Assembly: GCF_003991155.1 (NCBI RefSeq)
Contig: NZ_CP031293.1
Reading direction: 5' to 3' (one strand)
Length of the DNA stretch: 64,000 nucleotides
DNA from: Escherichia coli
GTDB lineage: Bacteria; Pseudomonadota; Gammaproteobacteria; Enterobacterales; Enterobacteriaceae
The notes below the pieces were generated by a model that saw only the letters and a list, made by a program, of their open reading frames with translations, did not search any database and was not told the origin of the DNA. The translations under genes and the position numbers were made by a program. Positions 10,889 to 28,618 of the stretch are shown piece by piece. How positions within the stretch are numbered: the first letter of the stretch is position 1; each line of letters begins with the position of its first letter.

Positions 10889-11095
10889 ATTTACCCTGTT
10901 TGTTTAATTATGTTGTACACCTCTTCAGGAGTATTCATAAAACAAGACAAATGTAAAGAACTGTATTGTTTTGTATAACCACATGGTTACCTAATCGCCA
11001 ATTAATATAAGCTCCATTATTTCTCCATATTTTTATGTTAGAAGTGACAAGGAGAAATGTAATGTTTCTCTCAGAGAATATAAATCATTCCTTTT

Positions 11096-11121
11096 GCCCA
11101 CCTTAATGGTGGGCTTTTTTA
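11096..11121 (+). terminator. Rho-independent terminator-like hairpin (orphan)
   Basis: GCCCACCTTAATGGTGGGC followed by TTTTTT; no annotated plus-strand gene upstream, possibly ends a short transcript. Confidence 0.4.
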
Positions 11122-11339
11122 TGCAAAACCTGAACGTCCTGTGGTATTCCTCTGGCATAATGATTTTCGCGATTAACCAACAACCAGACCAGCAAAGACG
11201 CCACCACAAGCACAGCAACATCCTTCAGGCTTGCCACACCCCATACGTGCGGCTCAAAGCCGCCATGGCATATTAATCCGCTTGCCATTTTCGAACAGCT
11301 GATTGGTTTAGTCCGGTGTTTCCCTGCTTGCACTTAAAA

Positions 11340-11474
11340 ATGAGCGGATGGGAAACTCTCGAAATGGTTCGTCGATATGCTCACCTTTCAGTCAGGCATT
11401 TCACCGCGCACGCGAGCAAAATCAAAGGCACAAGAGGAGAACGTAGTTTACTGAAATGTGAGGTAACTTATTGA
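11340..11474 (+). pseudogene. 3'-terminal remnant of a tyrosine integrase gene
   Basis: Translates to MSGWETLEMVRRYAHLSVRHFTAHASKIKG...*, a typical integrase C-terminus (RYAHL motif); upstream frame does not continue as integrase. Confidence 0.5.
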
Positions 11475-11480
11475 TTTAAA

Positions 11481-11496
11481 TGGTGCGATAATAGGA
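11481..11496. repeat. Distal att repeat: partial copy of thrW 3' end
   Basis: TGGTGCGATAATAGGA versus thrW 3' end TGGTGCCGATAATAGGAG at 31061-31078, same orientation. Confidence 0.55.
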
Positions 11497-11558
11497 ACAA
11501 TACACATAGGCGATAAGCTTTGTTTTTGTTGCCTTTTTTATTGTTCATTTTTTATAGA

Positions 11559-11578
11559 TACCCCCAAAAGTACCCCCA
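11559..11578. repeat. Arm-type motif TACCCCCAAAAGTACCCCCA near distal att
   Basis: Near-identical copy TACCCCCATAAGTACCCCCA at 30928-30947 near the thrW-proximal att. Confidence 0.4.
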
Positions 11579-11697
11579 TATCTTTTTCCGCCCCTGAAAT
11601 TTGGTTGTTATTCATACAGCATATCAGGCGGTAACGCTCTCCCTTTAACCCACTTATTGTATGATAGTGCTATCCCACAATAAGGAATCAGCCAGCC

Positions 11698-12057
11698 ATG
11701 AGAATGACCAGTCGCAAAAAAGAGATACTTAGCTACTTTGAACCGGATAACCTCGAATGGGTGACTGGTGAGATTGGTGCGCCGCCGTTCGATGTGTCGG
11801 GTGTGGCCTACCTGCTTCATGGCATGGTGTCGTTCGATAAGCGTCACCAGCTCGAATCAACCCGGCGAACACTGGAAAGCATGGTTGCTGGTGGACTGCT
11901 TGAGCGGGTGACAGTGTATGAATCGCGCCAGATACGGCGCGGCGGTGATACTAACGCAACGGTCGTGCGCTACGGTTTACCCGGTCAGTGCGCTGTTATG
12001 CGCGATACTGGCGGCGCTGACAACGCAATATCAGGTGAATACATGCGGGTCAGTTAA
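11698..12057 (+). CDS. Hypothetical protein (119 aa), island cargo
   Basis: ORF-track; convergent and overlapping stop with next gene; no recognised domain. Confidence 0.35.
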   Translation: MRMTSRKKEILSYFEPDNLEWVTGEIGAPPFDVSGVAYLLHGMVSFDKRHQLESTRRTLESMVAGGLLERVTVYESRQIRRGGDTNATVVRYGLPGQCAVMRDTGGADNAISGEYMRVS

Positions 12058-12592
12058 TAGCCTGCAATCTGTCGTTGATGCGGCTCAGGTCGTAAACCCG
12101 GCGTTCAATATCCAGCATCAGGAAATTGTGGATCTCGGCCTGCTCAGGATTATCAGACTCTCTGGCCTGTAATAGCAATTCATTGTAACCATGCAAGCCG
12201 CCTGAGTTTTCCGCCGGGGTGGTGCCTTTCCCACGCAGGCAGCTAATGGGCTGATTACTCGTATCGTGTGTTTGCTTCTCCAGCACAATGACGCAATCCC
12301 ACCAGTCGCCAAAGTCATACGTGTAAACCAGCTTGTCACCCTCATTCTGGAGCGCCGCCCATAGTGGCGTGATTGCCGCGTTACCCATGCTTTCATCCTC
12401 ACCCCATACGCGATACTCGCTACCTGGATCACCTTTACGCCCTTTCTCGAACATATACAGGTGTTCGTCATTCCAGCCAAAAGCTAACTGGATCACGGCA
12501 TGAAGTTTACTAAAGGGGATTTGCTCTGGAACCAGCACACGCCGCCATATAGGTGGTTTGCTGTCTCGGATGGTTATCTTTAGCTGGTACAT
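12050..12592 (-). CDS. pRiA4b ORF-3-like family protein
   Basis: 180 aa with signature MYQLKIT..PPIWRRVLVP...LHAVIQLAFGW...YTYDFGDWWDCVI typical of the plasmid pRiA4b ORF-3-like domain. Confidence 0.6.
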   Translation of the reverse strand: MYQLKITIRDSKPPIWRRVLVPEQIPFSKLHAVIQLAFGWNDEHLYMFEKGRKGDPGSEYRVWGEDESMGNAAITPLWAALQNEGDKLVYTYDFGDWWDCVIVLEKQTHDTSNQPISCLRGKGTTPAENSGGLHGYNELLLQARESDNPEQAEIHNFLMLDIERRVYDLSRINDRLQAIN

Positions 12593-12712
12593 GCAAATCC
12601 TGAATAAATGCGAATCGGAAGGATAACGATACTGACGTACTCACAATTCTGTAAAGGTGAATAAAGGAAATTTGCTTAATACGCATAAGTTACATGTGGA
12701 ATAATCCCATAT

Positions 12713-12898
12713 CTACCTGCGCGGCGCTGGCTTCTTCCACTGGTAGGCAGGTGCTCGCATCATTTCGCGGAACCTGTCGCGCCGGGCTATATCGGCATTA
12801 ACTGATCGTTCTATCTCCCGTTGATCTGCCTGTGTAAGCTGGTGGCCTCCGTGCTCAAGTTTGGCGATGGTCAATAAGGCTATTTCGCGTGGTGTCAT
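12713..12898 (-). CDS. Hypothetical small protein (61 aa)
   Basis: ORF-track only. Confidence 0.25.
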   Translation of the reverse strand: MTPREIALLTIAKLEHGGHQLTQADQREIERSVNADIARRDRFREMMRAPAYQWKKPAPRR

Positions 12899-13195
12899 AC
12901 GTCATACCCTCTGGAAGGATGAAACACGCCCGGATTAAATTTCATTTTTCGCGGGTATAAAAAAACGATGGGGCGGGCAGTCCCGGATAGTCAGGGCTGT
13001 AGAGATTTGACTACCCCCTCCCCACTGGATTCAGGTTACTGCTATTCCGTTAAGCGCTGCTTACGGGGATAGCTGCGTTGTGATTTTGACCATTCAGGTC
13101 GCCGCTATTTCCTCACCGATTGGGTGCTACGCGCGCGCGTACTTGTCCCGAAATACCAGAAACCGCCAGCCAGAGGATGATTTCCCTCTGGTGGT

Positions 13196-13477
13196 CTACC
13201 TTTGCCTCTTGCCGCCATTTAACCGGAAGGCGTTACCGTTCGGTTGCGCTATCCCCATGCGGTGTTGCGTTTCGGTAACAGCTTTATGCAGGTCGCCAAA
13301 TTCCTCAACCTTCACGGGCGGGCGCTTCACGTTCTCCAGACACGTTTCACGGCGGCGCTTTATCCATTCCCGATCATCGTCCTCGGTGCATAACAGCATG
13401 ACTTCCATCCATCGTGCGGCAGCTCTCCGGTATAGCCCTTTTGACTCCAGCTCTTCAGCTTTCCTGTCCCTTATCAT
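13196..13477 (-). CDS. PerC/Pch-family transcriptional activator-like protein
   Basis: 93 aa with ..ELESKGLYRRAAARWMEVM.. resembling the conserved PerC/Pch core. Confidence 0.55.
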   Translation of the reverse strand: MIRDRKAEELESKGLYRRAAARWMEVMLLCTEDDDREWIKRRRETCLENVKRPPVKVEEFGDLHKAVTETQHRMGIAQPNGNAFRLNGGKRQR

Positions 13478-13506
13478 TTCTGCCTCTCAGATTATATAGA
13501 TAAGCA

Positions 13507-13636
13507 AAAAGGTGTTGGTTCAGTTGGTTCAGTTGGTTCAATTTGTAAAGATCGTTGTTTTTATTGTGTTTTTTCTGAAATGTTGAACCAACATCAACTC
13601 ATTTTGAACCAACACAGCCCAGCTCTGAACCAACAA
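13507..13636. repeat. Iteron cluster A (GTTGGTTCA / TGAACCAAC repeats), left inverted repeat
   Basis: 13507-13550 is the exact reverse complement of 21756-21799; followed by AT-rich stretch and further TGAACCAAC-like repeats. Confidence 0.65.
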
Positions 13637-13748
13637 CACAGCGATAGCTTTGTGATTGGTCCGTTATTTTCTGGCTGATATTTGAGCGTATAACAGTGTT
13701 ATACAGTGGTATACTGTATGGATATTACTCACTGATATGGTCTTTGCA

Positions 13749-14192
13749 ATGAGCAAATCTAATCTGATCGCGTTCCGCATCCCATCTGAATTGCAGGATG
13801 AGTTTAATCGGTCTGTTCTCGCTTCTGGAGGGGATAAAACCTCCTGGCTTGTTGATGCGATTCGCATGAAGCTGGGACAGCCGGAAAAGTCTATTGATTC
13901 ACGAATGCTTGGGCTGGTGGAGCGCATGGAAAAAGCCGCTGCGTCGCTTATTGCCGGAAAGCCGAACATCCCACCAAAGCCATATAACGAAACGGCAGTT
14001 ATAAAGATCATTGCCGATACCATCCAACAGGGATTTGATAATGGGCGTGTGATAGCTGAACGGATCAATGAAGCAGGCTATCAAACAAAAGCTGGTAAAG
14101 CGTGGGATAAAGATATTTACAGCGCGTGGAAGCGTCAGGGAAGCAATGCTGAAAAGTTAAAAGCGGTGATTGATTGTAAGGTCAGCGTATAA
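13749..14192 (+). CDS. Putative ribbon-helix-helix DNA-binding protein
   Basis: N-terminus SKSNLIAFRIPSELQDEFNRSVLASGGDKTSWLVDAIRMKL is RHH-like; preceded by inverted repeat ATACAGT-N5-ACTGTAT at about 13700-13725; start 13737 or 13749. Confidence 0.4.
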   Translation: MSKSNLIAFRIPSELQDEFNRSVLASGGDKTSWLVDAIRMKLGQPEKSIDSRMLGLVERMEKAAASLIAGKPNIPPKPYNETAVIKIIADTIQQGFDNGRVIAERINEAGYQTKAGKAWDKDIYSAWKRQGSNAEKLKAVIDCKVSV

Positions 14193-14271
14193 ACATGAGT
14201 GCCCATTGGAAAGCTGCTTGGGCCAATACCTTTATACACCAGCAGGTGGTGACGATAGGTGAGGATTAGGC

Positions 14272-14493
14272 ATGAAAGGCAGAACGCCACACATTGAACA
14301 TCAAGCCAACCACTTCTCGGATGTTCGCAATGAGATGATTGCCATTCGCGGTGATATGCACGGCTTGGAGCGTCGAATTATTGATAAGATTGATGAAAAT
14401 AGAGATAAGGCCAGTGAAAATCAAAAGTGGATCATCGGCCTGTTGATTTTATCAATTCTTATCCCGCTACTTATCGCATTGGTCACAAAATGA
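14272..14493 (+). CDS. XhlA-like small membrane protein (coiled coil plus C-terminal TM)
   Basis: 73 aa; ..LERRIIDKIDENRDKASENQKWIIGLLILSILIPLLIALVTK matches XhlA/holin-like architecture. Confidence 0.4.
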   Translation: MKGRTPHIEHQANHFSDVRNEMIAIRGDMHGLERRIIDKIDENRDKASENQKWIIGLLILSILIPLLIALVTK

Positions 14494-15036
14494 ATATCCA
14501 ATGTGTATGCTGTCGATGCTACGCGCGCGTACTTGTCGCAAAATATCAGGCAAAGGCCAGATTCAGAAATTCGTGATAACCACCAGCACAACATGAGAGG
14601 TCATGTAACGCGATTTATCACACCAGATACATGTGATTGGTGTACCCGCATAAAACATCGTCATAGCGCGTCCTGTGCGCATATACGCCGATAATCAACA
14701 CATCACCACCACTCTGTCTCATGTAGAGAACAGTTTTATGGTACTCCCCTCCATCGTGCGCGTACTGGTCGGACGTAGTTGCAAAATTTTTTGCAACTGA
14801 TACCCCTCGCGCGCGTACTGGTCACGAAATTGGTGTTTTGCTGTGGCAGTGATATCAGAAAAATCTTCCTGTTTCACATAAAGCGGATATGCGCGTAATG
14901 TAACGGCCCCATCAACTGGGAGCGGATTTGAGCCCGAATGTGTAGGCAATGTCACTTAACGTTTGTCGCATACCTTCCAGAAAAAGCGATTCATGAATAA
15001 TAGGGGCATGAATGCCCGGCGTACCGGGCTTATTAG

Positions 15037-15735
15037 TTAATTTGGTGCTTTAGGGTCAACATTAAAAGTTATATCACCTTCTGTATTTTTCCCGGCATAG
15101 CTAGCGGCTATTCTCGCCAACCCTTTGTAATCAGCAATTCCATCAGACTGTTGCGAGACGACTGAGCTACCAACTTTCCATAACATATTAATCTGCCGAT
15201 TATTGAGATAAGCCTTGGCATCAAACGACTGGAGTATCACCCCTGCGCCGTAGAACGTGTCCGTCACAGTTGTGTTATACGCGCCAGTAATTCCATAAGT
15301 AGGCGTATAAACTGTTGTTGCCGTTCCAGTGGTATTAGCTGTACCGTAGCCACCACCATAACTATTGAACGTGGTGTTCGAGTTTCCGTACGTTGTTGCT
15401 GAGCTCACACCAGTTTGCCCGTATATTGGGATGGTTACATTACGAGTATTTGAAATGGCCCCGCTTCTCAAAAAGTTCAAGAGAATTACCTGGTCAGCCA
15501 ATTTTTCATCTTTAACTTGTGTATATCCTTGGCTTGATAAACTGGCGGCTACTACCGTAGCTATTTGAGTGTATTCAATCTGTTTGGTGTTCCAAAGTTC
15601 TTGGCTTGCGGGGATGATCAAGAACTTCTTACCGACAGATTGCCCGGAAGATAAAGCATTGACCGTTACTAACGGTTTTTGTACGCATCCAGCCAATAAT
15701 GACAGGGATAATATTAAAAGAAGATTTTTAATCAT
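15037..15735 (-). CDS. Lipoprotein, unknown function (Thr/Gly/Tyr-rich)
   Basis: Signal peptide with lipobox LLAGC; 232 aa. Confidence 0.6.
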   Translation of the reverse strand: MIKNLLLILSLSLLAGCVQKPLVTVNALSSGQSVGKKFLIIPASQELWNTKQIEYTQIATVVAASLSSQGYTQVKDEKLADQVILLNFLRSGAISNTRNVTIPIYGQTGVSSATTYGNSNTTFNSYGGGYGTANTTGTATTVYTPTYGITGAYNTTVTDTFYGAGVILQSFDAKAYLNNRQINMLWKVGSSVVSQQSDGIADYKGLARIAASYAGKNTEGDITFNVDPKAPN

Positions 15736-15885
15736 GATAATCTCACCTAAGAATTGCGTGGTTATAAATTATCATCACTGTAAGCGAATGTAAGCCACAG
15801 GCTCGTAATGTGATATGGAATTTTGATAGTTGGCTCAATATCAGTATGCCGTCCTTGGCTATTATGGTTTTGTTAGTTAGAGCGT

Positions 15886-18612
15886 CTATTCCCATTCGCT
15901 AACATCTTTCATGCCACTGAGGGTAGCTACAATCCCGGCCCTTGTCAGTTTCACGAATTCTTCAGCCCCAACGGCATCACGAATTGCTTTCATGGCAATT
16001 TTATTGGCCGAAAATCGTTTCTCTGCTGCGGCGATCGCTGCTGGTGATGCCCCTGCGCGCACTGCTTTTGTAGCTTCCTGAACGGCTTTCTCTATCGCAT
16101 ATCGACCACTTCTTGTCGCCCCAATCTTAGCCACAGCATTTCTTAGCGCGCCACCAGCAACCAAACCACTAATCGAACCAATTACACCACCGCCAAAGCC
16201 TCCAGCGATCGCACCTGACTGTTGAACTCCGTTCATAATCACGCCGACGATCTTTGGAAGGCCTGAATCGAGCGTTTTGAGAGCCTCAGTTGTTCTTCCC
16301 GTGCGCTCTACGTATCGCTGCGGTCTGGTACTGGCTTTAGCGAGTACACCGAACTCTTTCATCATTCTACCGAGATCTGGCGCATGACGACTGATGGCGT
16401 TTACATTCTGCTGGGTCATGAGCTTGGCAAAATACTGGATACCTGACTCTTCACCGATTCCTCCCTTCTCTCCCTGCGCCACAGCATGCTGAAGAATAGA
16501 TGCTATTGCAGGTTGGCGTTCTGCTTCCGGCAGCGCGGAGATAAGACGGTGAAAAGCTCCCGTTCCAGTGTTTGCGGATGCCTTAAGCGTATCGGCACCT
16601 TTTCTTACCATAGCGTCTGATGCGAGATCTCGACCAAAAACAGATTCGGCATTTTGTTTGGCGATAATGTAACTTTTAGAGAGATCGTTAGCTTTCTGCC
16701 ATTCTGTGAGGAAGTTTCCTTTTTCAGCCATGATGCGCATGTCATCAGTGATAGCTCTGCGCATTTCTCCGGCAATCCGGGCGGCATTGGCCTTACCTGC
16801 CCGGGTGTTTGCTTGTTCAGCATCAGCAAACTTAGCACGCCATGCCTTCATCCCGTCGAAGGTTATGCCGCCACCTTGGTTGTTGGCAGCCTGAAACTGT
16901 TTCATCTCCGGGCTGAGTGGAACATTGGCTGCTTTTTCTGCTTGGACGACAGCCATCCCATTACTCATTTTCATCCTTTCGCGTGGCATCGTGCTTCGCA
17001 GTTCTGCCCATGCCATATTCTCTGCTGTTTTCATATCACTGAGGCTCGCGATGATGCGCTCTTTAATTGCTGCGCTTTTTTCTGATGCGCTTCCAGACTC
17101 AGCACCGAAATCAGACAACTGCTTATTCAACTTTGAGGATATTTCATTGAAGGCCGTAAGGTGAGCATCCTGAACATTCCCAGGAGTTGATGCCAGAACA
17201 CCTTCTGCTTGGGCAATTCCACGACTACCTGAGCGCATTCCAGGCGTCAGGGTGTTGATATTAATACCAGTGATTTTCGCCGCCTTAGCGACATCATCTC
17301 TGACGTTTGATGCCTGCGATGCGATATGCTCTCGGCCTACGGCAGAACGCGCTGCTTTCGATACATCATTGGCGGTTTCCAGAGTATTTGCTGCCCCTAA
17401 CACATGGCCTGATTGATTTGTATTACTCCGCAATACATCTCGCATTACGTCACTGGCTGTCTGTCCGCTCTTTATTAAAGCGCGTGCTCCTAGCGATCCT
17501 GCTAGGCCAATACCTGTCTCTTTTGCTAGGTCTTCTGGGCTGATCTGCCCGTTCTTTTGGGCGTTCACCAATGTACCTGGCAGGTTTTCTGCCAACATAC
17601 TAGCCACCTTTGTGGCCGCACGTTCAGCACGTGGAGCGTTGGCAACTGAAGAAGCTGCGGTAGCTGCCTTTCCTGCACCTAATCCTGTAATAAGGTAAGG
17701 TGCTAGCTGCTCACCAGCCTGCGCGTATGGATCTGTAGGTTGGTCTACTGGGCGAAAGACAGGTGATATGGGCGTGTATGTGCCATCACCCACACCAAGC
17801 TTCTGAGCTGCCCATGCTCCGGCTGATTGCGCCGCATTGACTACCCCCACGCCTGCGTCCATTACATCAAACGGTATATTAGCAATCCCTCTGGCCATCT
17901 GCTCTGGCGCAGCTTTCAGTCCTGGCGAAAGATATTCCATCTCAGGATTAAGGTTAGACTTGGCTACTTGCTGCTGCGGTTCCCCGGCATTTTCATCGGC
18001 GAGAAACTGAGCTCTTTTCTGCTCCCATGAACTGGCTGTTGGTAGTCCTGCTTCTATGTTCTTAAATTGCTGACGTTTTGCTTCCCATGCAGAAATATCT
18101 CCCACCTGAGAGATTTCTTTATCAAGCTCTGAGTAGTCAGGCTGCTGAAGATTGCGATGTTGACTGGTTTGTGCAAACTGCAAGATTTCACTGTCATCAG
18201 GGATTATTCCGGCATCTGCAAATTTACTTACGTAATTAGCCGTTTCATCTGGCAGTGTAGATTTACCGTTTCTGACGGCATTAATACGAGCATAGCCAGA
18301 ATTATACCCAGCCAATGCCATACCTATATCACCAAATCGCTTCATTCCTTTATTGAGATGGTTTGCTGCGATATCCATTTGCTTTTCAAATGGCAGTGAG
18401 CGCGGATCTGTTCCACGATAACCAGCATCACTCATTACTGAGGGCATCAGTTGAGCAAATCCTCTAGCTCCTTTCGGTGACTCGGCACTTCCGTTACCAC
18501 TAGATTCATTGCCAACTAATGTTTCCATCGTCCCTGATGGGAAACCATATTTTTCATCGAGATGACGGGAATAGGCTTTCTGTTTTTCTGTCAGTTGTGC
18601 CATCATTGCCAT
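15886..18612 (-). CDS. Large Ala-rich protein with N-terminal lytic transglycosylase (SLT) motif; phage internal virion/ejection protein-like
   Basis: 908 aa; N-terminus contains ESSGNG...GFAQLMPS...AGYNSGYARI (family-1 LT ES / GLMQ / AYNxG motifs); rest is long Ala/Gly-rich. Confidence 0.6.
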   Translation of the reverse strand: MAMMAQLTEKQKAYSRHLDEKYGFPSGTMETLVGNESSGNGSAESPKGARGFAQLMPSVMSDAGYRGTDPRSLPFEKQMDIAANHLNKGMKRFGDIGMALAGYNSGYARINAVRNGKSTLPDETANYVSKFADAGIIPDDSEILQFAQTSQHRNLQQPDYSELDKEISQVGDISAWEAKRQQFKNIEAGLPTASSWEQKRAQFLADENAGEPQQQVAKSNLNPEMEYLSPGLKAAPEQMARGIANIPFDVMDAGVGVVNAAQSAGAWAAQKLGVGDGTYTPISPVFRPVDQPTDPYAQAGEQLAPYLITGLGAGKAATAASSVANAPRAERAATKVASMLAENLPGTLVNAQKNGQISPEDLAKETGIGLAGSLGARALIKSGQTASDVMRDVLRSNTNQSGHVLGAANTLETANDVSKAARSAVGREHIASQASNVRDDVAKAAKITGININTLTPGMRSGSRGIAQAEGVLASTPGNVQDAHLTAFNEISSKLNKQLSDFGAESGSASEKSAAIKERIIASLSDMKTAENMAWAELRSTMPRERMKMSNGMAVVQAEKAANVPLSPEMKQFQAANNQGGGITFDGMKAWRAKFADAEQANTRAGKANAARIAGEMRRAITDDMRIMAEKGNFLTEWQKANDLSKSYIIAKQNAESVFGRDLASDAMVRKGADTLKASANTGTGAFHRLISALPEAERQPAIASILQHAVAQGEKGGIGEESGIQYFAKLMTQQNVNAISRHAPDLGRMMKEFGVLAKASTRPQRYVERTGRTTEALKTLDSGLPKIVGVIMNGVQQSGAIAGGFGGGVIGSISGLVAGGALRNAVAKIGATRSGRYAIEKAVQEATKAVRAGASPAAIAAAEKRFSANKIAMKAIRDAVGAEEFVKLTRAGIVATLSGMKDVSEWE

Positions 18613-19922
18613 CCCTTAAGTTTTGCCTGATAGTAACTTTCCGGCAGATAGCCATGTGCGGTCACATAATCCTTAACCAGTGAAGGATCCTGCAACAGCA
18701 TTTTGGTATCAGTTTCTTCGTCCTTAGATTTGGTTACAGGAATACCGAGCCCGGCAATCTGTCGTTTCTGCATTCGAATAATTACGTCCTGCGCTTTATT
18801 CAACTCTCGCAAAAATGCCTCATTGCTGGTTGCTGACTTAATGCCATTTTGAGATTGCATAAGGGCAGCCCTTTCCCCTTCGGTTGGGTTAGAGCCAAAA
18901 GTCCCTTTGAGGCTAGGCAGAATAACCTTTAGGTTGTATTCATCAGCTTTGGCGCGTAGGCTTCGTGTGTCTTCTGCTACATCAGGAAGGAATCCAAACC
19001 CCAGCGTCAGGGGGTTATAGTTCTGCGAGCGGGTAACGGCCGAAGGATGTTTCCCTACAATTCCCGCCAGTTCATGACCCACTTCAAGCGCAGAGTTCAA
19101 GGAGTCGATGTTACCTACAACAGTATTAATTTTATCGTTCATCTTCTCCACTTTCGCCTGCTGTACCTTGCTCAGTTCAGCATTGAGCTTGTCTCTCTCG
19201 ATGTCATTTTGAGCACGTCCAAGTCGTGCTTTCAGAACCATTTCTCTCGTGCGTAGTTGGTTATCGGATAGGACTTTGAACTGCTCCATATCGAGACGTC
19301 GATTACCCTGTTCCGCATTAACCTGAGCATTATATGCGGATGTATCTGCGTTCTGCTGTGCAATGCTCTGCCCTTGCTGCTTCTCTTGAACACTAAAGTA
19401 ACTATTTGGATCAGCATGGAGGTGGATGAGGTCAGTGATTCTGTTGAATTCCTGTGGGTCATTCTGCCAAGACTGATAAACCTCTTCAGCAGGAAGACCA
19501 AATCGCTGTAATACTGGATTTGCCTGCTGAATGGCCTTCTGCATGGTCAGTGGATCTCCAGTTTGTGACGCAAGACGCAGATTCATGGCAGCGTCAGCGG
19601 TCTGTCGATTTTGCTCAGCATCAATGAATCCCATCTGTTTTTGAGAATCAGCCATAAACTGGGGATACTGGGCCATTAACTTCTGCACGCCAACACGATC
19701 ATTATTAGCTACCGCACTACCCAACCGTGCCTGATATTCTTTTAACTGCTGGGAAATTTGCGCCTGCTGATTAATCTCAGCAACGCCTCTTAGCCCCTGT
19801 AGCGCCATTAAACCTACGTTTGGCTGCTGCTGATACTGCACAGGCTGAGGAACGGAAGAACGAGGAGCATTATCATTTTGCGGTGCCATGCTAGGCAGCC
19901 CGCCAAGTTGCCATGTCGCCAT
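18603..19922 (-). CDS. Gln-rich coiled-coil protein, ejection-protein-like
   Basis: 439 aa; overlaps downstream gene start (operon). Confidence 0.45.
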   Translation of the reverse strand: MATWQLGGLPSMAPQNDNAPRSSVPQPVQYQQQPNVGLMALQGLRGVAEINQQAQISQQLKEYQARLGSAVANNDRVGVQKLMAQYPQFMADSQKQMGFIDAEQNRQTADAAMNLRLASQTGDPLTMQKAIQQANPVLQRFGLPAEEVYQSWQNDPQEFNRITDLIHLHADPNSYFSVQEKQQGQSIAQQNADTSAYNAQVNAEQGNRRLDMEQFKVLSDNQLRTREMVLKARLGRAQNDIERDKLNAELSKVQQAKVEKMNDKINTVVGNIDSLNSALEVGHELAGIVGKHPSAVTRSQNYNPLTLGFGFLPDVAEDTRSLRAKADEYNLKVILPSLKGTFGSNPTEGERAALMQSQNGIKSATSNEAFLRELNKAQDVIIRMQKRQIAGLGIPVTKSKDEETDTKMLLQDPSLVKDYVTAHGYLPESYYQAKLKGWQ

Positions 19923-20599
19923 TAGAATCCAAGCCCCCCAACAAGACCAATAAGCCCACCACCAATAGCGCCGGCCGCAGTTCCTATTCCAGGAACAACG
20001 GAACCAAGTTGCGCACCCGCTAAAGCGCCTGATGCTGCCCCACCAATACCACGCGCAAGACTGGATGGCTGCTGCGCCTGACCTGCACGAATAGCGCCAA
20101 GCCCCTGCAAGAGTTGTCCGGTATTATTGGCGTAGTTTTGCCCTGCCGTTGCCTGCCCTGATGCCGCATTCATCCCGACATTTAGCAGGTTTCCATAATT
20201 TTGCATTTGCCCACTAAGCCAATTGTTATAAAGCATGGGCGCAATGGAAGATAACTGGTTACTGGTAGCTGTTGAGCCAAGCCCCCCGGTAGCTTCTGCT
20301 GAGACAAGGTTCTGATAACGGGCCTGATCTGCCTGTGTTTTATATAAACCAGAACCAAAGAAATCATTCGCGGCTTTATTCTGCCCTTCCAGAGTCATCA
20401 GTCCTTGCAGTTGTTGTAAAGCAGGCAATCCGACTTCTGCATACGGCTTGAGATTATTCATCACCGTATTCCACTGCTCGCGCTGCAAATCAATTGCCTG
20501 CTGCTGGGCCTTCGCCTGAGCTTTAGAGGCACCACCATCACCGCCTTTTTCGTATACGGCACGATTGAGATGTTTATGAGCTATATGGGTAATTAACAT
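19922..20599 (-). CDS. Gly/Ala-rich protein with hydrophobic C-terminus, ejection-protein-like
   Basis: 225 aa; C-terminal GxxxG-rich hydrophobic segment; contiguous with neighbours. Confidence 0.45.
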   Translation of the reverse strand: MLITHIAHKHLNRAVYEKGGDGGASKAQAKAQQQAIDLQREQWNTVMNNLKPYAEVGLPALQQLQGLMTLEGQNKAANDFFGSGLYKTQADQARYQNLVSAEATGGLGSTATSNQLSSIAPMLYNNWLSGQMQNYGNLLNVGMNAASGQATAGQNYANNTGQLLQGLGAIRAGQAQQPSSLARGIGGAASGALAGAQLGSVVPGIGTAAGAIGGGLIGLVGGLGF

Positions 20600-21054
20600 T
20601 CGCTGAATTCCTTATATTGTTGCCGAGTTAACTGATAAAGCGTTACGCCGACGGGTTTACCACATCTGATATAAGCATCATCAAGGTGACCAACACGGGT
20701 AGCGCCAAGCAAACGGATAATTGCCCGTCCATATTTTGTGGTGTCAGGAACCATAGTGATGCTGTTAAGGAATGGTGAGTTTTCGAGAAGCCATTTGCAG
20801 AATAATCGATGCCCTTGCAGTGCATATTCACCACGGAATCCGGGGTCGTACACCGCATGGCATTCAACAACGCTATGCCAGAAGTTACGCACTTCATGAA
20901 CGCCAGCCAGCACTAATCCTTCGTAGATGCCGAGATATACCGCATCAGGCTTGATGTAGTACGTGTGCCCCGGCTCAACAATATTTTCGGTATTGCCTGG
21001 CTCGTTAAGAAAGGCCTGTAATCGCACAGGGTTATCAATAAATTTTAGTTCCAT
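20593..21054 (-). CDS. Hypothetical protein (153 aa), first large gene of the module
   Basis: ORF-track; overlaps next gene start. Confidence 0.4.
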   Translation of the reverse strand: MELKFIDNPVRLQAFLNEPGNTENIVEPGHTYYIKPDAVYLGIYEGLVLAGVHEVRNFWHSVVECHAVYDPGFRGEYALQGHRLFCKWLLENSPFLNSITMVPDTTKYGRAIIRLLGATRVGHLDDAYIRCGKPVGVTLYQLTRQQYKEFSEC

Positions 21055-21070
21055 GCGATGCCATCCATTT

Positions 21071-21232
21071 TCACATACAGCCTGCCAGCGCCTTATCTAT
21101 TAACCCTCGTGCAATTTCATGCAGAGTTGGCGCTACTCCAATTCCTGATTTTTTACGCTGCTCTTCCTGAATTTTCTTTATCGCTTCCATTTGCTTCTCA
21201 CTTATCAATACCGGCTTTACTGAAATAGCCAT
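21071..21232 (-). CDS. Small RHH-like protein (about 53 aa)
   Basis: Internal start MAISVKPVLISEKQMEAIKKIQEE... within the 96-aa track ORF; beta-strand plus two helices pattern. Confidence 0.3.
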   Translation of the reverse strand: MAISVKPVLISEKQMEAIKKIQEEQRKKSGIGVAPTLHEIARGLIDKALAGCM

Positions 21233-21685
21233 AACGCCCCCCTTAGAACTGTATAAAACAACAGTTATTATAGTTTCACAAATCGCAATATTCATCATCG
21301 TAATTGCAAAATATGAAACAAATAGCACAAAAAAATGCCACCGCTCAGTAGCTGGTGGCATCGTTCTGTGTGTCAGGTTTTGACAGGTTTTTTATGGACT
21401 CTAAAAACTATATTTATGGTATCGCATTACTCTTCACGGCAGGTGCTTTTCAGTTCTGCCCTTGCTTCTGGCTCCATTGGTAATTTGATTCGCGATCAGC
21501 TATGCGGATGGTTTGCTGAACAGGCATAACAACTTCTCAGAGGCTGTTTTTTGAACTACGAAAATTTCGTAGTGCTCACTTTCAAAAACGTCACGCCCTT
21601 GTACACAGGATTTTACGAAAGTCTCGTAAAACACTCTCTGATGCCAGCCAGGTGTTGTGCGCATCAATTCAGTCACATTGTGTCG

Positions 21686-21799
21686 GTTCAAAATACCGTG
21701 TTGTTGGTTCAGTGTTGGTTCAATAAAAAGAATAAAATCCTTATAAAACAATACACTTTACAAATTGAACCAACTGAACCAACTGAACCAACACCTTTT
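21686..21799. repeat. Iteron cluster B (TGAACCAAC repeats), right inverted repeat
   Basis: Three tandem 9-mers at 21762-21793; degenerate copies at 21686-21722; immediately 3' of the primase gene. Confidence 0.65.
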
Positions 21800-21817
21800 C
21801 TACGCACATGAAGAAGC

Positions 21818-24577
21818 TCATTCTTCAGATGAGTTATAATCTCCTGGCTGGTAATTGAGTACATAAACGTTTATTTGTCGTCCCTGAATACGTGGTGATT
21901 TTCTTTGGTATCCACGACCGCTGTTTGGTGGGGTTAGCATCCCGGCTTTTTTCAACACTTCAGCAAACTGTTTTGCGTTGAAACCACATGCGATCTCCTT
22001 TTCAAATGTGGCCGGGAATGTGTAGAAAATCATTGGGCTTTCGTCATGTTCTCCACGCTGACGGTATCCGGCTAAATCTTTGATGGGCAAATCTGCCGGG
22101 CTGTATGGAAATGGTGCAAAACGGCTAAGCCCATAGGCATTAAGAAATGCCTCCGTTTGTTCAATAATCTGCTGATGCTCTTTGTTACCTGTGCCGAACT
22201 CGCGCAACCATGCGTTATAGCTGTGCTGTATCGCATCACGGCATGTCTGAGCATCCCAGCCTGTTACAACCTCGCCTAACAACAATGCGGCCTCCAGAAT
22301 GGCAAATCGCGCGGCTACACGGTGAACCTGCTCACCATAATCGGATGGGATCAGGCTTCTCCATCTGCTTTCGCAATCACGAACGGTTTTAATAGCCTGT
22401 TGCTGGTGGTGTGCCAGCCATTTAATCCACTCACGCCCGGACGCGCCGTGGTGATGCTGGTAAGCGTCTTTCAGTGCGTCTGCGTGCTGTTTTCCGTTCT
22501 GGTAATCGTGAAAGCGTACTGCTTTACTCAACGGAATATTCAGCAGTCGCACCAGTTGCCCGGCTTTGGTTTTTCGCCCGGAAGTAGCGATAAATGTTTC
22601 TAAATCCATTTCTCCGGTGCTGATTGCCACTGTACGCCAGCGTTTTAGATCCCGGTTTCCACCATCTTTAGCGCCTTGCAGTTTCCCTACACCGTTAAAT
22701 AACGCATAGGCAGACTGTGAAACGCTGACAGGATCAGCGCCCTGACCAACTTCATCAAGCGGCATTAGTCCGTCATTGTGGGCGGCGGCCTCATTTGCCA
22801 GCCCCAGCGCGGTTCCGTACCACGTCAGCCGCAGTAAATCAGGGTTGCCGTATAAGCTGCTCGCCACGTTTGCCGTGGTGGTCTTACCTGCGCTCGACTG
22901 CTCATAGAAATGAATGCCGAACCCGTCAGCGCCCACCAGCCCAATCAATGGCGCTGCCAGTGCTGCGCCGATCCCGGTCATCATTGAATAGTTACCAAAG
23001 GCCAGACGCGCCACGTTATCACGCCAGCTTTTCGCGCTCCCTGAGACGGTATATCCGGCTGCGGCTGAGCTTCTCCCGCTGAACAGCACAGGATTTTCAG
23101 GTGTTCCGATGATTTCCCCATCAGGCATGATGTACGCTCCGCATTGCCAGCCAGTGGCATGAGCAACACGCCACAATTCACGAGAGCCACTGCGTTGTAG
23201 CCAGTCTGCCAGTATTGCTCTGAGGCTGCTTTTGGTCGTGACATTTACCCCACCAGCTTTAAGTGTGCGCCATCCTTCACGTTCACCAATATCAGCCAGT
23301 GGAATGGCAGCGGTTGTCGGCGTTTCAGAACCAAACGACAGCCAGCGAAGAATGAGATACTGGTCTTTATCGTCTCTGCCAGTACCGATAACGCTTAACG
23401 GAGAACATAACCAGCTTTCGTTATTGATGATTTCTCCACTCTGGCTGTCAGCTCTCGGAGATACCCAATAAATACCATCCTCGCGGCTTTCTATTCTTGG
23501 TTTCAGTGGGTCGGTATCCATAACCTTAAAATCGCTTCCCTCAATGGTCTGTGGCTCCTGTTTCACGCCATTACCCTGTGGTTGGTACATTGACTTATTG
23601 AACGCTTCTGTGGCGCATTTAATGCCGTGTTTTTGGTGGTAATCATTCCAGTCTGCTTTGTGATCTGTCGGGGGTAATGCCACCCATCCAGAAACAGATA
23701 AAGCTGCTTTTTCTGCTGCTATTCTCCCCGTGTTTTGTCTTCCTTCGCTGTGGTCGTTATCCGCAGCAATGATGATTTGTGCTGAAGGAAATTTATCCCG
23801 CAGTACCTGGGCGACATATAACAGGTTCCCGGCATCAATCGCCGCCACTGTCAGCGCCTCTGGACGAATTAAATGGGCAGATAATGCCGTTGCCAGACCT
23901 TCTGCGATTAAGATGCTCTGTGTTGTTTCTGGTGCGTTTATGGCGTGATATGCCCCCCGCTTTGCTGAACCTGTCAGGAGTCTTTTTTCACCATGTGAGG
24001 TAATAGTCTGTGCTGCTGTGACTGCGCCGGATTTATCCACCAGCGCCAGCAACAGAGATCCATCGGGCAACACGGGGAATGTAAAATCACCTACCCCTTT
24101 CGCAACCAGATAATCAGATTTGCCGTTTACAGCCTTTCTGCGCATGTCATCAAACTGACGGGAAAACGTATCCCGTCTTTGTTGTTCGTCCTTCTCTGCC
24201 CTTTTCAGGCGCTCCTGTTCGCGTCGCTGGCGCTCGGTTTCCAGTTGTTCCCGTTTCTGGCTGGTGGCTTCTGGTGTTTCCGTTGTCCGGTAATCAATAC
24301 CCAGAACATCAGCGGCAAGAAGCGCCGCCTCTGTTGTGTCGCAGTTATTTACGCGTTTAATTAAATCCAGCCCATCACCAGCGCCGCACTGATTACAGAT
24401 GAAGCTACCGCGCCCGTTGTCATCGAACCGGAATCGATCTTTGCCCCCACATGCAGGGCAGGGAGCATGACGGCGCGGAGAGTCAGGGACATTTATGTTC
24501 AGGCAGCCCAGCACATGAGGCCAGTTGTTTTCAGACGCACTGATAACCTGACGGATAAGATCAATGTTTCGCATCAC
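21818..24577 (-). CDS. P4 alpha-like primase-helicase (zinc finger + toprim + P-loop NTPase)
   Basis: 919 aa; CPACGG..CNQCG zinc-binding motif, toprim-like IIIAADNDH, Walker A SSAGKTTT and Walker B LMPLDEV. Confidence 0.8.
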   Translation of the reverse strand: MMRNIDLIRQVISASENNWPHVLGCLNINVPDSPRRHAPCPACGGKDRFRFDDNGRGSFICNQCGAGDGLDLIKRVNNCDTTEAALLAADVLGIDYRTTETPEATSQKREQLETERQRREQERLKRAEKDEQQRRDTFSRQFDDMRRKAVNGKSDYLVAKGVGDFTFPVLPDGSLLLALVDKSGAVTAAQTITSHGEKRLLTGSAKRGAYHAINAPETTQSILIAEGLATALSAHLIRPEALTVAAIDAGNLLYVAQVLRDKFPSAQIIIAADNDHSEGRQNTGRIAAEKAALSVSGWVALPPTDHKADWNDYHQKHGIKCATEAFNKSMYQPQGNGVKQEPQTIEGSDFKVMDTDPLKPRIESREDGIYWVSPRADSQSGEIINNESWLCSPLSVIGTGRDDKDQYLILRWLSFGSETPTTAAIPLADIGEREGWRTLKAGGVNVTTKSSLRAILADWLQRSGSRELWRVAHATGWQCGAYIMPDGEIIGTPENPVLFSGRSSAAAGYTVSGSAKSWRDNVARLAFGNYSMMTGIGAALAAPLIGLVGADGFGIHFYEQSSAGKTTTANVASSLYGNPDLLRLTWYGTALGLANEAAAHNDGLMPLDEVGQGADPVSVSQSAYALFNGVGKLQGAKDGGNRDLKRWRTVAISTGEMDLETFIATSGRKTKAGQLVRLLNIPLSKAVRFHDYQNGKQHADALKDAYQHHHGASGREWIKWLAHHQQQAIKTVRDCESRWRSLIPSDYGEQVHRVAARFAILEAALLLGEVVTGWDAQTCRDAIQHSYNAWLREFGTGNKEHQQIIEQTEAFLNAYGLSRFAPFPYSPADLPIKDLAGYRQRGEHDESPMIFYTFPATFEKEIACGFNAKQFAEVLKKAGMLTPPNSGRGYQRKSPRIQGRQINVYVLNYQPGDYNSSEE

Positions 24578-24932
24578 CGTACCCCACGTGGTCTATAGCG
24601 TTTGCGATATGGCTAACCAGCATCTGCCACTTGGTTATTCCGTAATCAGTCAGCATGCCATCATTGTTTAGCCACATATCAAATTCAGCGGTTGTCGCAA
24701 GTTTCCACTTATCGCCGTGGACAGTCCTCATTGCTGGGTACATGAATGCGCAAATCAGATCACAAACATCTGACGGCTTCAGAGATGTAGTAATGGTGCG
24801 TCCCTCTGGCGTCTGAATTGCCATTTTCTCTTCACCAGTAGAATGAAGGTTATGAATCCACACAGCACCAGCAATCTTTGCCACCTGCTCTCCGATTGCG
24901 GAGCTAAGCGCCATTTCTGCATTTTCACGCAT
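24561..24932 (-). CDS. Hypothetical protein (123 aa)
   Basis: ORF-track; overlapping stops/starts with neighbours. Confidence 0.35.
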   Translation of the reverse strand: MRENAEMALSSAIGEQVAKIAGAVWIHNLHSTGEEKMAIQTPEGRTITTSLKPSDVCDLICAFMYPAMRTVHGDKWKLATTAEFDMWLNNDGMLTDYGITKWQMLVSHIANAIDHVGYGDAKH

Positions 24933-25266
24933 GAGAACCTCCCGCTACAGTTGCGCCCATGTCATTAACCATGCTTTGCCATATCTCACGCCCGACGTCA
25001 GTCAATCCGTCCTTAGTGACGCAACGTTCAAGAAGCTCGATCCCCACGGTTTCCCACTGCGGGTAGAACACTTTCATGGCTGCCAGTGTGTAGCTATCGA
25101 TCAGGCTGCGAACGCCTTTTACTCCATTGACGATTTCCACACGGACGGCCTCGCCGTCCGCATCAACCATGAAATAGTCCCCGCCGCTGGTGGAGGTAAT
25201 GTGGTTATACAGTGCCGACGCATACTTATTTGCCAGCGCATTCAGTCGGAAATTTTTAGTAATCAT
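24925..25266 (-). CDS. Hypothetical protein (113 aa)
   Basis: ORF-track. Confidence 0.35.
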   Translation of the reverse strand: MITKNFRLNALANKYASALYNHITSTSGGDYFMVDADGEAVRVEIVNGVKGVRSLIDSYTLAAMKVFYPQWETVGIELLERCVTKDGLTDVGREIWQSMVNDMGATVAGGSHA

Positions 25267-25276
25267 GGCTCCATCC

Positions 25277-25879
25277 TCAGTGCGTCACTGGTTCCGCTGG
25301 CATGCCGTTTTCATTCAGTTCAGCTATAAAGCTGTTGTGAAGTTCAGCAAGCGTTTCACGCCCAAATGGAGTCAGTGCTCCTTGTTCCACATCCATCATG
25401 GCTCTGTAGAAAATAATGGCGCGTTCTGTGCCAGACTCGATGCCAAAACGTTCTATCATCGCGCCCTCAATGTTGTTTGCCATAGCGAGGCGCTCTGCTA
25501 CTGGATACAGCGGCATGGCGACGATGCCGTTGGAATAAACAGCCACTTCGGAAGGATTGCCAGTATCATCAATGATGCTGACAGTGCCGTTTTCCTCTCT
25601 CATTTCCAGCATGAATACTGTTGCGATCAGCCATCTCCACATAATGACGTTATGCTGTGATGTGTAATCGAAATATCCCTGGTTACCGCCATCGGCAATA
25701 GCGAGATGTATTGACATACCTTCATCTGGTTTATCGTCATAATCCCCGGCATCCAGACGATTTACGGCATCAATATATGAGATGGCCTCAACGCGTTCTG
25801 TCATGCCATCGTTGCTGCGGTACATGATGTTTACGCCGTCAGGCGTTGCTTCTGCATGGAAAGTTAAGAAATTATTCAT
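25277..25879 (-). CDS. Hypothetical protein (about 200 aa)
   Basis: ORF-track frame 25277..25984; likely start at internal Met (MNNFLTFHAE...). Confidence 0.35.
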   Translation of the reverse strand: MNNFLTFHAEATPDGVNIMYRSNDGMTERVEAISYIDAVNRLDAGDYDDKPDEGMSIHLAIADGGNQGYFDYTSQHNVIMWRWLIATVFMLEMREENGTVSIIDDTGNPSEVAVYSNGIVAMPLYPVAERLAMANNIEGAMIERFGIESGTERAIIFYRAMMDVEQGALTPFGRETLAELHNSFIAELNENGMPAEPVTH

Positions 25880-26093
25880 GTTTCGCCTCGCCTGAATGAT
25901 TCTGTAACTCATATTTGCCCAACAATTCGTCCGCTTCCTGAATAGCTTCTGGTACGCCATTGAGCAGTGACATAACCGCGCCAATCATTAACTTGTCTCT
26001 GTTGCTGGGGCTGGCCCCTTCAAGCCAGAACCCTAAAACAGTCTGAACCTGTTCGATGCGACATTGCGCTTCAATGAGCTGGATGTTGGTCAT
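25872..26093 (-). CDS. Hypothetical small protein (73 aa)
   Basis: ORF-track; 4-nt overlap with upstream gene. Confidence 0.3.
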   Translation of the reverse strand: MTNIQLIEAQCRIEQVQTVLGFWLEGASPSNRDKLMIGAVMSLLNGVPEAIQEADELLGKYELQNHSGEAKHE

Positions 26094-26353
26094 TTCGCAC
26101 TCTCCACATCGATTAAACCGATATCTATCAGGGAGGTAACTTTTTGTAGCCAGCTATTGATTACTGTCGCCTGTTCCCCTCCCACCGAGGGAACAATCTC
26201 ATTCATCACATGAACCAGACCTGTGCGCGCTCTGGTAAGCCGTTCAGTCGCGCAATCTGCGGGAGTGAATGTGTCTGGATATGGCTCTTCACGCCCCAGC
26301 AATGATTCAATTTCCAGCTCACACGGATGACGATAAATTAAGTTGATATTCAT
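26090..26353 (-). CDS. Hypothetical small protein (87 aa)
   Basis: ORF-track; ATGA-type overlaps. Confidence 0.3.
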   Translation of the reverse strand: MNINLIYRHPCELEIESLLGREEPYPDTFTPADCATERLTRARTGLVHVMNEIVPSVGGEQATVINSWLQKVTSLIDIGLIDVESAK

Positions 26354-26544
26354 TTTTCACCCCCAAGAATTACCAGCTCGGCACGGGCATCGTTAACCAA
26401 AGATGAGCACGCTTTAATCGCATCCACGACATCAGCAGCGTCCATTTCTTCAGCCGAAAGACTGACAGCAACCAGGACAGCCGCTGCTTGCTCGATTAAT
26501 TGAAGTGCGGACGTAAGTCGAGGGGCATTAATTGAGTTATTCAT
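26350..26544 (-). CDS. Hypothetical small protein (about 64 aa)
   Basis: Internal start [10 protein letters not shown]... in track ORF 26350..26601. Confidence 0.3.
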   Translation of the reverse strand: MNNSINAPRLTSALQLIEQAAAVLVAVSLSAEEMDAADVVDAIKACSSLVNDARAELVILGGEK

Positions 26545-27604
26545 TGGTTGCCCCCGTTTTTCCTGGCATTTCGCCACCTTCCAGCAGGAAATGAACGTCA
26601 CGAACGGCGAGATCCAATATCGCGAGTAACGCCTTCAGTCTTTCGTCTCGTGAGGGAGAGTTGCTCACCAGAATGTCGTTAATCACTTCTGTCAGTGTGA
26701 TGATCTGGCTTGTGCGTTCGAGGGGATCCATATGCACATCGTAGGTTTTAATCATGAGCCACCTCCATGCGGATACGACCAGCAAAAAAGCAGACGTGAT
26801 CGCGCACCAGAGAACGGCGAGCATCGCGTTCAGACTCGGCAGCAATATGATGAATTTTGGCGGTAATTGTCGAGCAATCGCGGCGAACTGCGGCGATAAT
26901 CCAGATAAATTGCGGTTTTTGGGTAGGGGTAGTAGCCAGCATGTGGCAGCCTCCATTCGATAGCATGTAACGCTACCACCGGAAACGCCAATTTCGCTGG
27001 TGGTAGCCCAGACAGGGTTGGCGTAACCGGCTCGAATGGATACCGGCGCTTCCGAAGAAGCCCCTGCCTGAGCCACCATTGATTGACAAAGGCGCTGGAT
27101 TATACACCAACGCCCAAAAAATGGGTGAGTCAGACCTACGACATAAAAAAAGACGCTCGGCGCGTCATATGTCGCCATTCGATTTACTAGGACGCCAATC
27201 CCGGCACCCGTTTTATGAGGTGCCTTATAACCATAAACCGTGTTGCCGCATAACGGCAAGCTCTTTTTTATGGACTCCGAAAACTCGCTATTGGAAGCAC
27301 CAGATGCACAGTACATCGCGCTCATTTCGTTAACGTCACGCGCGTGGACGAATGTTTTTGTGGAGTCACTACACGAGCGGAAGACATCATCTACGACCAG
27401 AAATTTTCTGGCGCAGCCGCTGACCTTCTCAATGCTAATATCATCGCCCGAGATTTCTGATATGGTTAAGGCATCCGTTCCGACCACCAGCAAATGATAA
27501 ACTTTGCTTGTATCTGCTGTATTAATGCCTGACTTTGCCGTCATATTGCTGGATTTTGGCGACATACCAGCCAGTGAAAATGTCTTCTTCTGGACGGTTA
27601 GCAT
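26537..27604 (-). CDS. Long open frame of uncertain gene structure (possibly a 72-aa gene 26537..26755 plus upstream gene)
   Basis: 355 codons without stop; composition atypical in middle part; start overlaps stop of upstream gene. Confidence 0.25.
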
Positions 27605-28606: not shown

Positions 28607-28618
28607 TTTCAGTCTCCG

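Follow-up and report, generated by a model that had tools for sequence, protein, structure and literature searches.

A P22-type set of ejection-protein genes in an EcCIMP1-type satellite island of Escherichia coli

We analyzed a 64,000-nt stretch of an Escherichia coli chromosome (contig NZ_CP031293.1 of assembly GCF_003991155.1; hereafter, the window) in which a chromosomal island of ~19.6 kb carries five co-directional genes on the minus strand, at 15886-21232. In the list of open reading frames (ORFs) these genes code for proteins of 53, 153, 225, 439 and 906/908 amino acids (aa), and neighbours among the four larger genes overlap by 1 to 10 nt. The first gene (21071-21232), preceded by a strong ribosome-binding site, AGGGGGG, codes for a 53-aa ribbon-helix-helix (RHH) protein and is the conserved leader gene of the cassette. 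It is followed by homologues of four genes of phage P22: gp14 (20593-21054, 153 aa, DUF2824), an assembly factor for ejection proteins (E-proteins); gp7 (19922-20599, 225 aa), an ejection protein; gp20 (18603-19922, 439 aa), an ejection protein and periplasmic conduit; and gp16 (15886-18606), with an N-terminal SLT lytic transglycosylase domain. The gp20 and gp16 homologues are of the allelic type called type A below. The SLT-gp16 ORF as a whole extends over 15886-18612 and would give 908 aa; from the start at 18606 chosen by the Prokaryotic Genome Annotation Pipeline (PGAP) the product has 906 aa. A sequence-only reading of this stretch had described four co-directional overlapping genes behind a small RHH-like gene, and the ORF coordinates bear it out.

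Each of the four larger proteins was matched to an ejection-related family by PHROG profiles and to its P22 counterpart by BLASTP. The gp14 homologue hit phrog_651 (the gp14-type head-morphogenesis family, 1e-66) and is 23% identical to P22 gp14 (E = 2e-7); the gp7 homologue hit phrog_598 (DNA ejection, gp7; 3e-70) and is 56% identical to P22 gp7. For the gp20 homologue the profile was phrog_917/2534 (gp20-type, ‘released upon infection’; ~1e-44), with 28% identity to P22 gp20 over the N-terminal 200 aa. The gp16 homologue matched phrog_770 (DNA transfer, gp16; 5e-121) over residues 189-864; the Pfam domain SLT (PF01464) occupies residues 15-117 (E = 3.8e-12), with all its motifs complete (E36-S37, G51-F-A-Q-L-M-P and AGYNSGY), as the sequence-only reading had noticed for the N-terminus of the last gene. 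Furthermore, orthologues with 84-88% identity carry the precomputed Pfam labels DUF2824 (PF11039), P22_gp7 (PF25688), Inj_translocase (PF16928) and SLT plus Phage_P22_gp16 (PF26808). The BLASTP pairing with P22 gp14, gp7, gp20 and gp16 was one-to-one and the order identical. Homology of the four proteins to the P22 ejection set is far beyond chance. They matched no NCBIfam family and nothing in sequence searches of solved structures, and neither PHROG nor Pfam gave any similarity to terminase, scaffold or capsid proteins.

The suggestion of a P22 gp14/7/20/16-type module in a capsid-less element is thus upheld by PHROG, by the Pfam labels of orthologues and by BLASTP; a resemblance to T7 gp13-16, proposed along with it, goes no further than the SLT domain (phrog_342, residues 9-217), all other matches being P22-type. 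Unrelated families, such as components of conjugation or secretion systems, had been named as a possible outcome; the proteins do not belong there. The module has the order 14-7-20-16, co-directional and tightly coupled, as in P22 and in the P22-like phage Kapi1. Its placement is unlike that in the P22 virion operon: a primase gene and the RHH gene come before it, a lipoprotein gene and a PerC gene after it. PHROG scans of the larger island ORFs and the PGAP annotation of an identical island revealed no capsid, portal, terminase, tail or lysis genes in the island and no needle, tailspike, coat, portal or terminase genes around the module, in agreement with the earlier remark that no other virion gene is present.

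The island itself is a known element. EcCIMP1 (GenBank OR778291), a phage-inducible chromosomal island (PICI) of E. coli MP1, has a length of 19,963 bp and resides in a tRNA-Thr gene between proA and yagU, with the attachment (att) core TCCTATTATC (Pick, Stadel & Raivio, ISME J 2025, PMC11773190). The window island is 98.3-98.9% identical to EcCIMP1 at the nucleotide level over 18.8 of its 19.6 kb, and shares with it the thrW att core, the insertion site and the gene order, including all five module genes. The sole differing segment (13614-14513), with ORFs of 151 aa (13737-14192) and 73 aa (14272-14493), takes the place of the part of the MP1 island that holds a second AlpA/excisionase-like gene, alpA_1. 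The window island is an EcCIMP1-type PICI. The sequence-only reading had seen no established precedent for satellites with ejection proteins of their own; this no longer stands, given an element with 98-99% identity in print (PMC11773190) and delivery-protein replacement demonstrated for the PICI-like elements (PLEs) of Vibrio (PMC11838301).

EcCIMP1 was shown to need the P22-like prophage vB_EcoP_Kapi1 for excision and circularization; its cycle requires its own alpA and int, with AlpA as the master activator, and Kapi1 transduces it specifically but inefficiently (PMC11773190). Helper-dependent excision, replication and transduction were thus shown for EcCIMP1 with Kapi1, whereas the window copy is known from sequence alone. 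The EcCIMP1 paper reports finding no structural genes (PMC11773190); the module genes were not recognized there as a complete gp14/7/20/16 ejection set, and we did not find such a reading in the other literature searched. Compared with Kapi1, the window proteins are 84% (gp14, Kapi1_055), 58% (gp7), 26% (gp20) and 25% (gp16) identical, and when the island was compared with the complete Kapi1 genome by BLASTN, the matches were confined to gp14-gp7 (81%) and to two short, weak stretches.

The RHH gene with its ~400-bp leader was found in 520 of 5,426 complete E. coli genomes (~10%). The islands inspected reside at thrW and at yicC/dinD and have either a TOPRIM/DUF927 or a DUF5906 replicase; the module slot, behind the replication and RHH genes, is constant at both att sites and with both kinds of replicase. 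A gp20-like and gp16-like pair follows the RHH gene in the inspected islands free of decay by insertion sequences (IS); one inspected copy (TW10690) is IS-disrupted. We distinguished three types of content: type A, with gp14, gp7, gp20 (439 aa) and SLT-gp16 (906 aa); type B, with gp20 (488 aa) and a 701-aa ‘injection protein’, with or without gp14 and gp7; and type C, with gp20 (447 aa) and a 705-aa protein. The types are mutually 25-50% identical, and for the gp16-like protein phages reach at most 67% identity in type B and 63% in type C. In the comparisons made, the constant cargo of the island family is a cognate gp20 and gp16 pair, with at least three allelic types, in agreement with the published genetics of P22 (PMC10461980) described below. 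In some genomes, e.g. NZ_CP091026.1 (STEC383), the RHH leader is present in two or three copies (in up to three places), which suggests two family islands in one genome.

Most of the type A gp20/SLT-gp16 sequence was present at no less than 99% identity in 71 of the 5,426 genomes; most of the whole module with its leader was likewise present in 71, and among the 71 genomes carrying the module it was intact in each of the 20 that were listed. Among 50,697 phage records no match to type A gp16 exceeded 52% identity (47-52% for the best sequenced phages), while in the closest true P22-like prophage that we found the identities were 77% for gp14, 59% for gp7, 46% for gp20 and 58% for gp16. In the phage records, complete E. 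coli genomes and prophages compared, the type A gp20 and gp16 alleles occurred only in satellites. Because the slot is the same at two att sites, the two counts of 71 genomes are equal and no phage record has a close copy, we conclude that the module belongs to the satellite.

The four module genes differ from those of MP1 by 32 synonymous and 12 non-synonymous changes, with a ratio of non-synonymous to synonymous rates (dN/dS) of 0.11; for the primase gene dN/dS is 0.125. A Citrobacter freundii satellite has the same layout (Ash, primase, SSB, ProQ, PerC, RHH, gp14, gp7, gp20, SLT-gp16), and its module genes show 84-91% amino-acid identity to those of the window with dN/dS of 0.02-0.07, where dS is at least 1 and thus near-saturated. 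The module is under strong purifying selection and is maintained rather than decaying. One could ask whether we see a degraded P22-like prophage that came to lie fortuitously beside satellite-like genes, as the sequence-only reading had offered among its explanations. Such remnants do occur in E. coli: at argW of O157:H7 a degraded P22-like prophage retains gp14, gp7 and gp20 along with needle remnants and IS scars. Here, however, all frames are intact with dN/dS of 0.02-0.11, no flanking needle, tailspike or immI remnants are present, satellites at two att sites and in a second genus have the module at the same place, and EcCIMP1 excises as a 20-kb unit (PMC11773190). Contiguous capsid or terminase genes, which would be expected nearby if closely related islands were simply truncated prophages, were never present in the islands examined. 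We rejected the remnant explanation, leaving it hardly any probability, in view of intact ORFs, low dN/dS, lack of flanking remnants and the conserved position in many satellites.

In P22-like phages gp7, gp20 and gp16 are packed in the capsid, expelled at infection and build a DNA channel across the cell envelope. The three P22 E-proteins form a trans-envelope conduit; complete foreign sets function in P22 capsids, being swappable between P22-like phages, but P22 with only the gp16 or only the gp20 of Sf6 makes normal-looking, non-infectious particles, i.e. gp16 and gp20 must be cognate (PMC10461980). Since complete foreign sets work and the two proteins have to match, a satellite with a full cognate set could in principle arm any P22-like capsid. 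We favor, with better than even confidence, the interpretation that the region is a virion-protein module of an EcCIMP1-type PICI, a complete and functional P22-type ejection set that would be loaded into helper-built particles. By analogy with the Vibrio PLEs and their tape-measure proteins, loading of the satellite's own DNA-conduit proteins is the most likely role, and of the three explanations considered in the sequence-only reading, a satellite supplying its own ejection proteins is the one that fits best.

The cycle would start when a P22-like helper goes lytic and AlpA turns the island on; the island would then excise and replicate with its own primase (both steps were shown for the near-identical EcCIMP1). 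Island E-proteins would be produced and co-assemble into helper-built procapsids, so that satellite gp20 and gp16 would form at least part of the conduit by which particles with island DNA deliver it. As the likeliest benefit, we speculate that transfer of the satellite would be freed from the helper's own gp20/gp16 allele; a complete cognate set would also alter sensitivity to exclusion. SieA is an exclusion protein of the inner membrane; escape from it has been mapped to gp16 and gp20, and the set of HK620 evades it in part (PMC10461980). As gp20 and gp16 are known targets of SieA-type exclusion, the satellite could, speculatively, escape it.

Several points weigh against this interpretation. 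We infer, rather than observe, that island E-proteins enter particles, and the benefit of evading superinfection exclusion (Sie) is purely conjectural. Helper and satellite E-proteins would be co-produced in one cell, and a particle would somehow have to take up the satellite set. Transduction of EcCIMP1 by Kapi1 is very inefficient (~5e3 particles/ml); a Kapi1-like prophage is present in only 2 of 21 EcCIMP1 strains, so the natural helper is uncertain; and the EcCIMP1 authors, who named the module genes ‘DNA-transfer/DUF2824-like’, favor a packaging role for them (PMC11773190). BLASTN detected no pac-like sequence common to the island and Kapi1, shared 14-15-mers being at chance level, and no helper-type late promoter was found in the island.

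The role suggested by the EcCIMP1 authors is that the gp14-like and ‘DNA transfer’ proteins steer helper assembly or packaging toward the island. The module does lie downstream of the primase gene, where PICIs keep packaging genes (PMC11773190); the gp14 family is annotated in PHROG as ‘head morphogenesis’, and small-terminase genes are present in this region of some related islands (L066 and L047 of the survey described below). However, all four proteins are full-length members of ejection families with no terminase, scaffold or capsid similarity, and P22 ejection proteins are dispensable for assembly and packaging, as mutant particles are complete though non-infectious (PMC10461980). We consider redirection of packaging or morphogenesis quite improbable.

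The need for cognate partners could also be turned against the helper. Satellite E-proteins might spoil procapsids of the helper or of other P22-like phages, mixed non-cognate gp20 and gp16 giving non-infectious particles and protecting the host population. A single foreign gp16 or gp20 has this effect in P22 (PMC10461980), satellite and helper share no more than 25-26% identity in gp20 and gp16, interference with helper assembly is common among satellites, and EcCIMP1 contributes to immunity against Kapi1 (PMC11773190). Still, EcCIMP1 leaves the Kapi1 yield undiminished, both on induction and on lytic infection of non-lysogens (PMC11773190), and a complete cognate set with gp14, all under strong purifying selection, exceeds what poisoning would need. 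We regard such interference as unlikely, although it deserves to be kept in mind ahead of the other alternatives to loading of a satellite conduit.

Directly after the gp16 gene, at 15037-15735 on the minus strand, lies a gene for a 232-aa lipoprotein of the DUF4136 family (lipobox LLAGC), a candidate exclusion protein. It is swapped jointly with gp20 and gp16 between island variants and has no homologue in the 50,697 phage records. Its modeled structure resembles in predicted fold the ring-forming outer-membrane lipoproteins PelC and TraT. TraT is the surface-exclusion protein of the F plasmid. In one type B island a weak SieA-like gene occupies the equivalent position; like its P22 counterpart it lies on the opposite strand. 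Superinfection immunity against Kapi1 is increased by EcCIMP1, in which its authors found none of the known defense systems (PMC11773190); PADLOC likewise detected no known defense system among the accessory genes of the window island. The lipoprotein and SieA-like genes are better candidates than the E-proteins for the EcCIMP1-dependent superinfection immunity.

The whole locus could then be viewed as a domesticated superinfection-exclusion device, with E-proteins in the resident cell, or the adjoining lipoprotein, blocking incoming P22-like phages. The immunity that EcCIMP1 confers with no known defense system (PMC11773190; PADLOC negative), the TraT/PelC-like predicted fold of the lipoprotein and the SieA-like gene in the same position in a type B island would all agree with it. 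Yet exclusion from inside accounts for the lipoprotein and SieA-like genes better than for the four E-protein genes, and E-proteins act from within the virion, exclusion activity not being known for them; we think it very improbable as an explanation of the module.

Upstream of the RHH gene there is a non-coding leader of ~400 bp (21233-21640, minus strand), which in an alignment of seven islands is nearly invariant even though these islands differ in replication genes and E-protein alleles. It has two palindromes, TTTTACGAgactTCGTAAAA and CTACGAAATTTTCGTAG, with TACGA/TCGTA half-sites in common, which may be operators for the RHH protein. A terminator scan found a terminator-like hairpin at 21337-21352 followed by a run of seven T (poly-T); a TATAAT box lies beyond. 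The leader matched no Rfam family, and conservation of the leader and its palindromes was not found outside Escherichia.

Looking for related islands in other genera, we made a small survey by primase scan with one genome per species (64 loci), in which the search for further structural genes was confined to co-directional ORFs of 70 aa or more, up to ~9 kb beyond the RHH gene on its downstream side. An RHH homologue was present downstream of the primase gene in 25 of the 64 loci. The genes behind it differed. Escherichia sp. and Lelliottia have a P22-type set; a 108-aa protein with a tape-measure protein was intact in seven genomes (one each of Klebsiella, Chimaeribacter and an uncultured Erwinia, and four of Pantoea) and decayed in three further ones; Pluralibacter has a tape-measure protein without the partner. 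At five loci we saw a ‘lytic tail protein’ or tape-measure-like proteins with peptidoglycan-hydrolase domains, in Pectobacterium and Serratia an internal-virion-type hydrolase, and in Rosenbergiella and Erwinia a baseplate hub; small-terminase genes were additionally present at L066 and L047. The survey loci with delivery-type genes after the RHH homologue were L015, L019, L021-L024, L026, L027, L029-L031, L035, L036, L038 and L045-L047, and their genera also include Cedecea and Raoultella.

The proteins in this slot are those that exit the virion and clear a path for the DNA, a pattern that parallels the delivery proteins encoded by the Vibrio PLEs (PMC11838301). We propose tentatively, with rather less than even confidence, that EcCIMP1-like satellites of Enterobacterales may have a conserved RHH-headed slot for delivery proteins matched to the type of helper, and that takeover of the conduit may be a general, previously unrecognized strategy, which could evade SieA-type exclusion and be paired with travelling exclusion genes. 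A gp20 and gp16 pair, with or without gp14 and gp7, would suit P22-like podoviruses, whereas the 108-aa chaperone-like protein with a tape measure, the lytic tail proteins or the hub would suit long-tailed helpers. Conduit takeover could admit satellites into cells that exclude the helper, e.g. past SieA-type blocks of gp20 and gp16, and the exclusion genes of the cassette (for the TraT/PelC-like lipoprotein and the SieA-like protein) would be the other half of the system.

The remaining features of the island are those of a satellite. It extends over 11479-31077, bounded by AATGGTGC(C)GATAATAGGA repeats: the distal att repeat, AATGGTGCGATAATAGGA, at 11479-11496 (plus strand) is a unique match in the window with 0 expected by chance, and the repeat AATGGTGCCGATAATAGGA at 31059-31077 (plus strand) overlaps the 3′-end of thrW, called as tRNA-Thr (CGT) at 31061-31136, and holds the EcCIMP1 att core in reverse complement. 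On the minus strand are genes for a tyrosine integrase (29681-30895; PGAP annotation of the identical island), an AlpA regulator (29050-29253; Pfam Phage_AlpA, 8.5e-20) and a satellite primase/helicase with zinc ribbon, TOPRIM and DUF927 (21818-24574; phrog_1139, 2e-178, along with PGAP and Pfam on an orthologue). The other island genes, according to PHROG and the PGAP annotation of the identical island, code for an antirepressor, Ash, an Icd-like protein, PerC and hypothetical proteins. Just past the primase stop, at 21700-21800, GGTTCAGTT occurs three times and the inverted GAACCAACA three to four times, flanking an AT-rich tract; this iteron-like region is probably the satellite origin. MP1 has one additional copy here, and islands with the DUF5906 replicase differ in sequence.

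In the ash/icd region Rfam gave two matches on the minus strand, C4 antisense RNA at 26996-27083 (79.5 bits; gathering score 45) and isrK at 27146-27223 (60.5 bits; gathering score 50); therefore, a P4/P1-type module of RNA immunity is present in an element that was published as a PICI. Near both ends of the island there are motifs of the form AGTACCCCCAT. The junction between yagU and the island is variable: in the window, 10900-11480 holds only a C-terminal remnant of an integrase (~11300-11470), in STEC383 there are paoABCD and a LysR fragment, and in MP1 a 7-kb vat/MarR island. Outside the island, Rfam matches were to an IS009 RNA (10067-10268), naRNA4 (46543-46620) and the end of an rRNA operon with 5S, 23S and tRNA-Asp (63024-64000), which are ordinary chromosomal features.

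Satellites are thought to take whole virions from their helpers, changing mainly capsid size and packaging. Replacement of the tape measure by a satellite's own was shown only in 2025 and for one satellite family, the Vibrio PLEs (PMC11838301). The locus described here is a candidate podovirus counterpart, in an E. coli satellite family present in ~10% of complete genomes, with private and strongly conserved ejection proteins; gp20 and gp16 are the two proteins that superinfection-exclusion systems target. Should transducing particles make use of these proteins, it would be the satellite, and not the helper, that determines host range and exclusion sensitivity of transfer, the spread of PerC-type virulence regulators and defense cargo would be affected, and EcCIMP1 with Kapi1 would offer a tractable system for asking why satellites replace DNA-entry components. 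The element was known; what is new here is the recognition of the complete ejection set, of its selection and allelic types, and of the slot shared across genera. The interest lies in the function of the module and in a possible general strategy of satellites, replacement of the helper's DNA-entry proteins.

Among known systems, genes 14, 7, 20 and 16 of P22 (Lederbergvirus) have the same four homologues, order, co-direction and overlaps; the P22-like coliphages Dewey and Huey also have an SLT-gp16 fusion. The P22 genes, however, sit in the virion operon between the needle gene 26 and sieA/tailspike, while the island genes follow the primase and RHH genes, and the island gp20 and gp16 are 25-58% identical to the phage or prophage copies found. 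The T7 gp14-gp16 internal core is a functionally analogous ejected conduit, and there are T7 gp16-like proteins with an N-terminal lytic transglycosylase; beyond that SLT domain there is no homology, the island set being P22-type. The classical Gram-negative PICIs EcCICFT073 and EcCIEDL933 have the same int-alpA-primase backbone, a PerC-like accessory gene and an AlpA-driven cycle, but their helpers are lambdoid phages of the cos type and the genes they carry are for Rpp or capsid redirection, whereas the window island has the E-proteins plus P4/P1-like features (C4 RNA, isrK, Ash and Icd). Mycobacterial EPIP satellites likewise carry a tape-measure gene. The PLEs of Vibrio cholerae encode their own tail-assembly chaperone, tape measure and baseplate hub, which are present in PLE virions and needed for efficient transfer (PMC11838301). 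The PLE, too, is a satellite without capsid and tail genes that keeps its own helper-type conduit proteins and a chaperone (PMC11838301), and the window island correspondingly encodes divergent homologues of helper conduit proteins along with an assembly factor; the differences are that the PLE helper is a myovirus, that the proteins are unrelated in sequence, and that incorporation into particles was shown for the PLE, the island being known from its genes.

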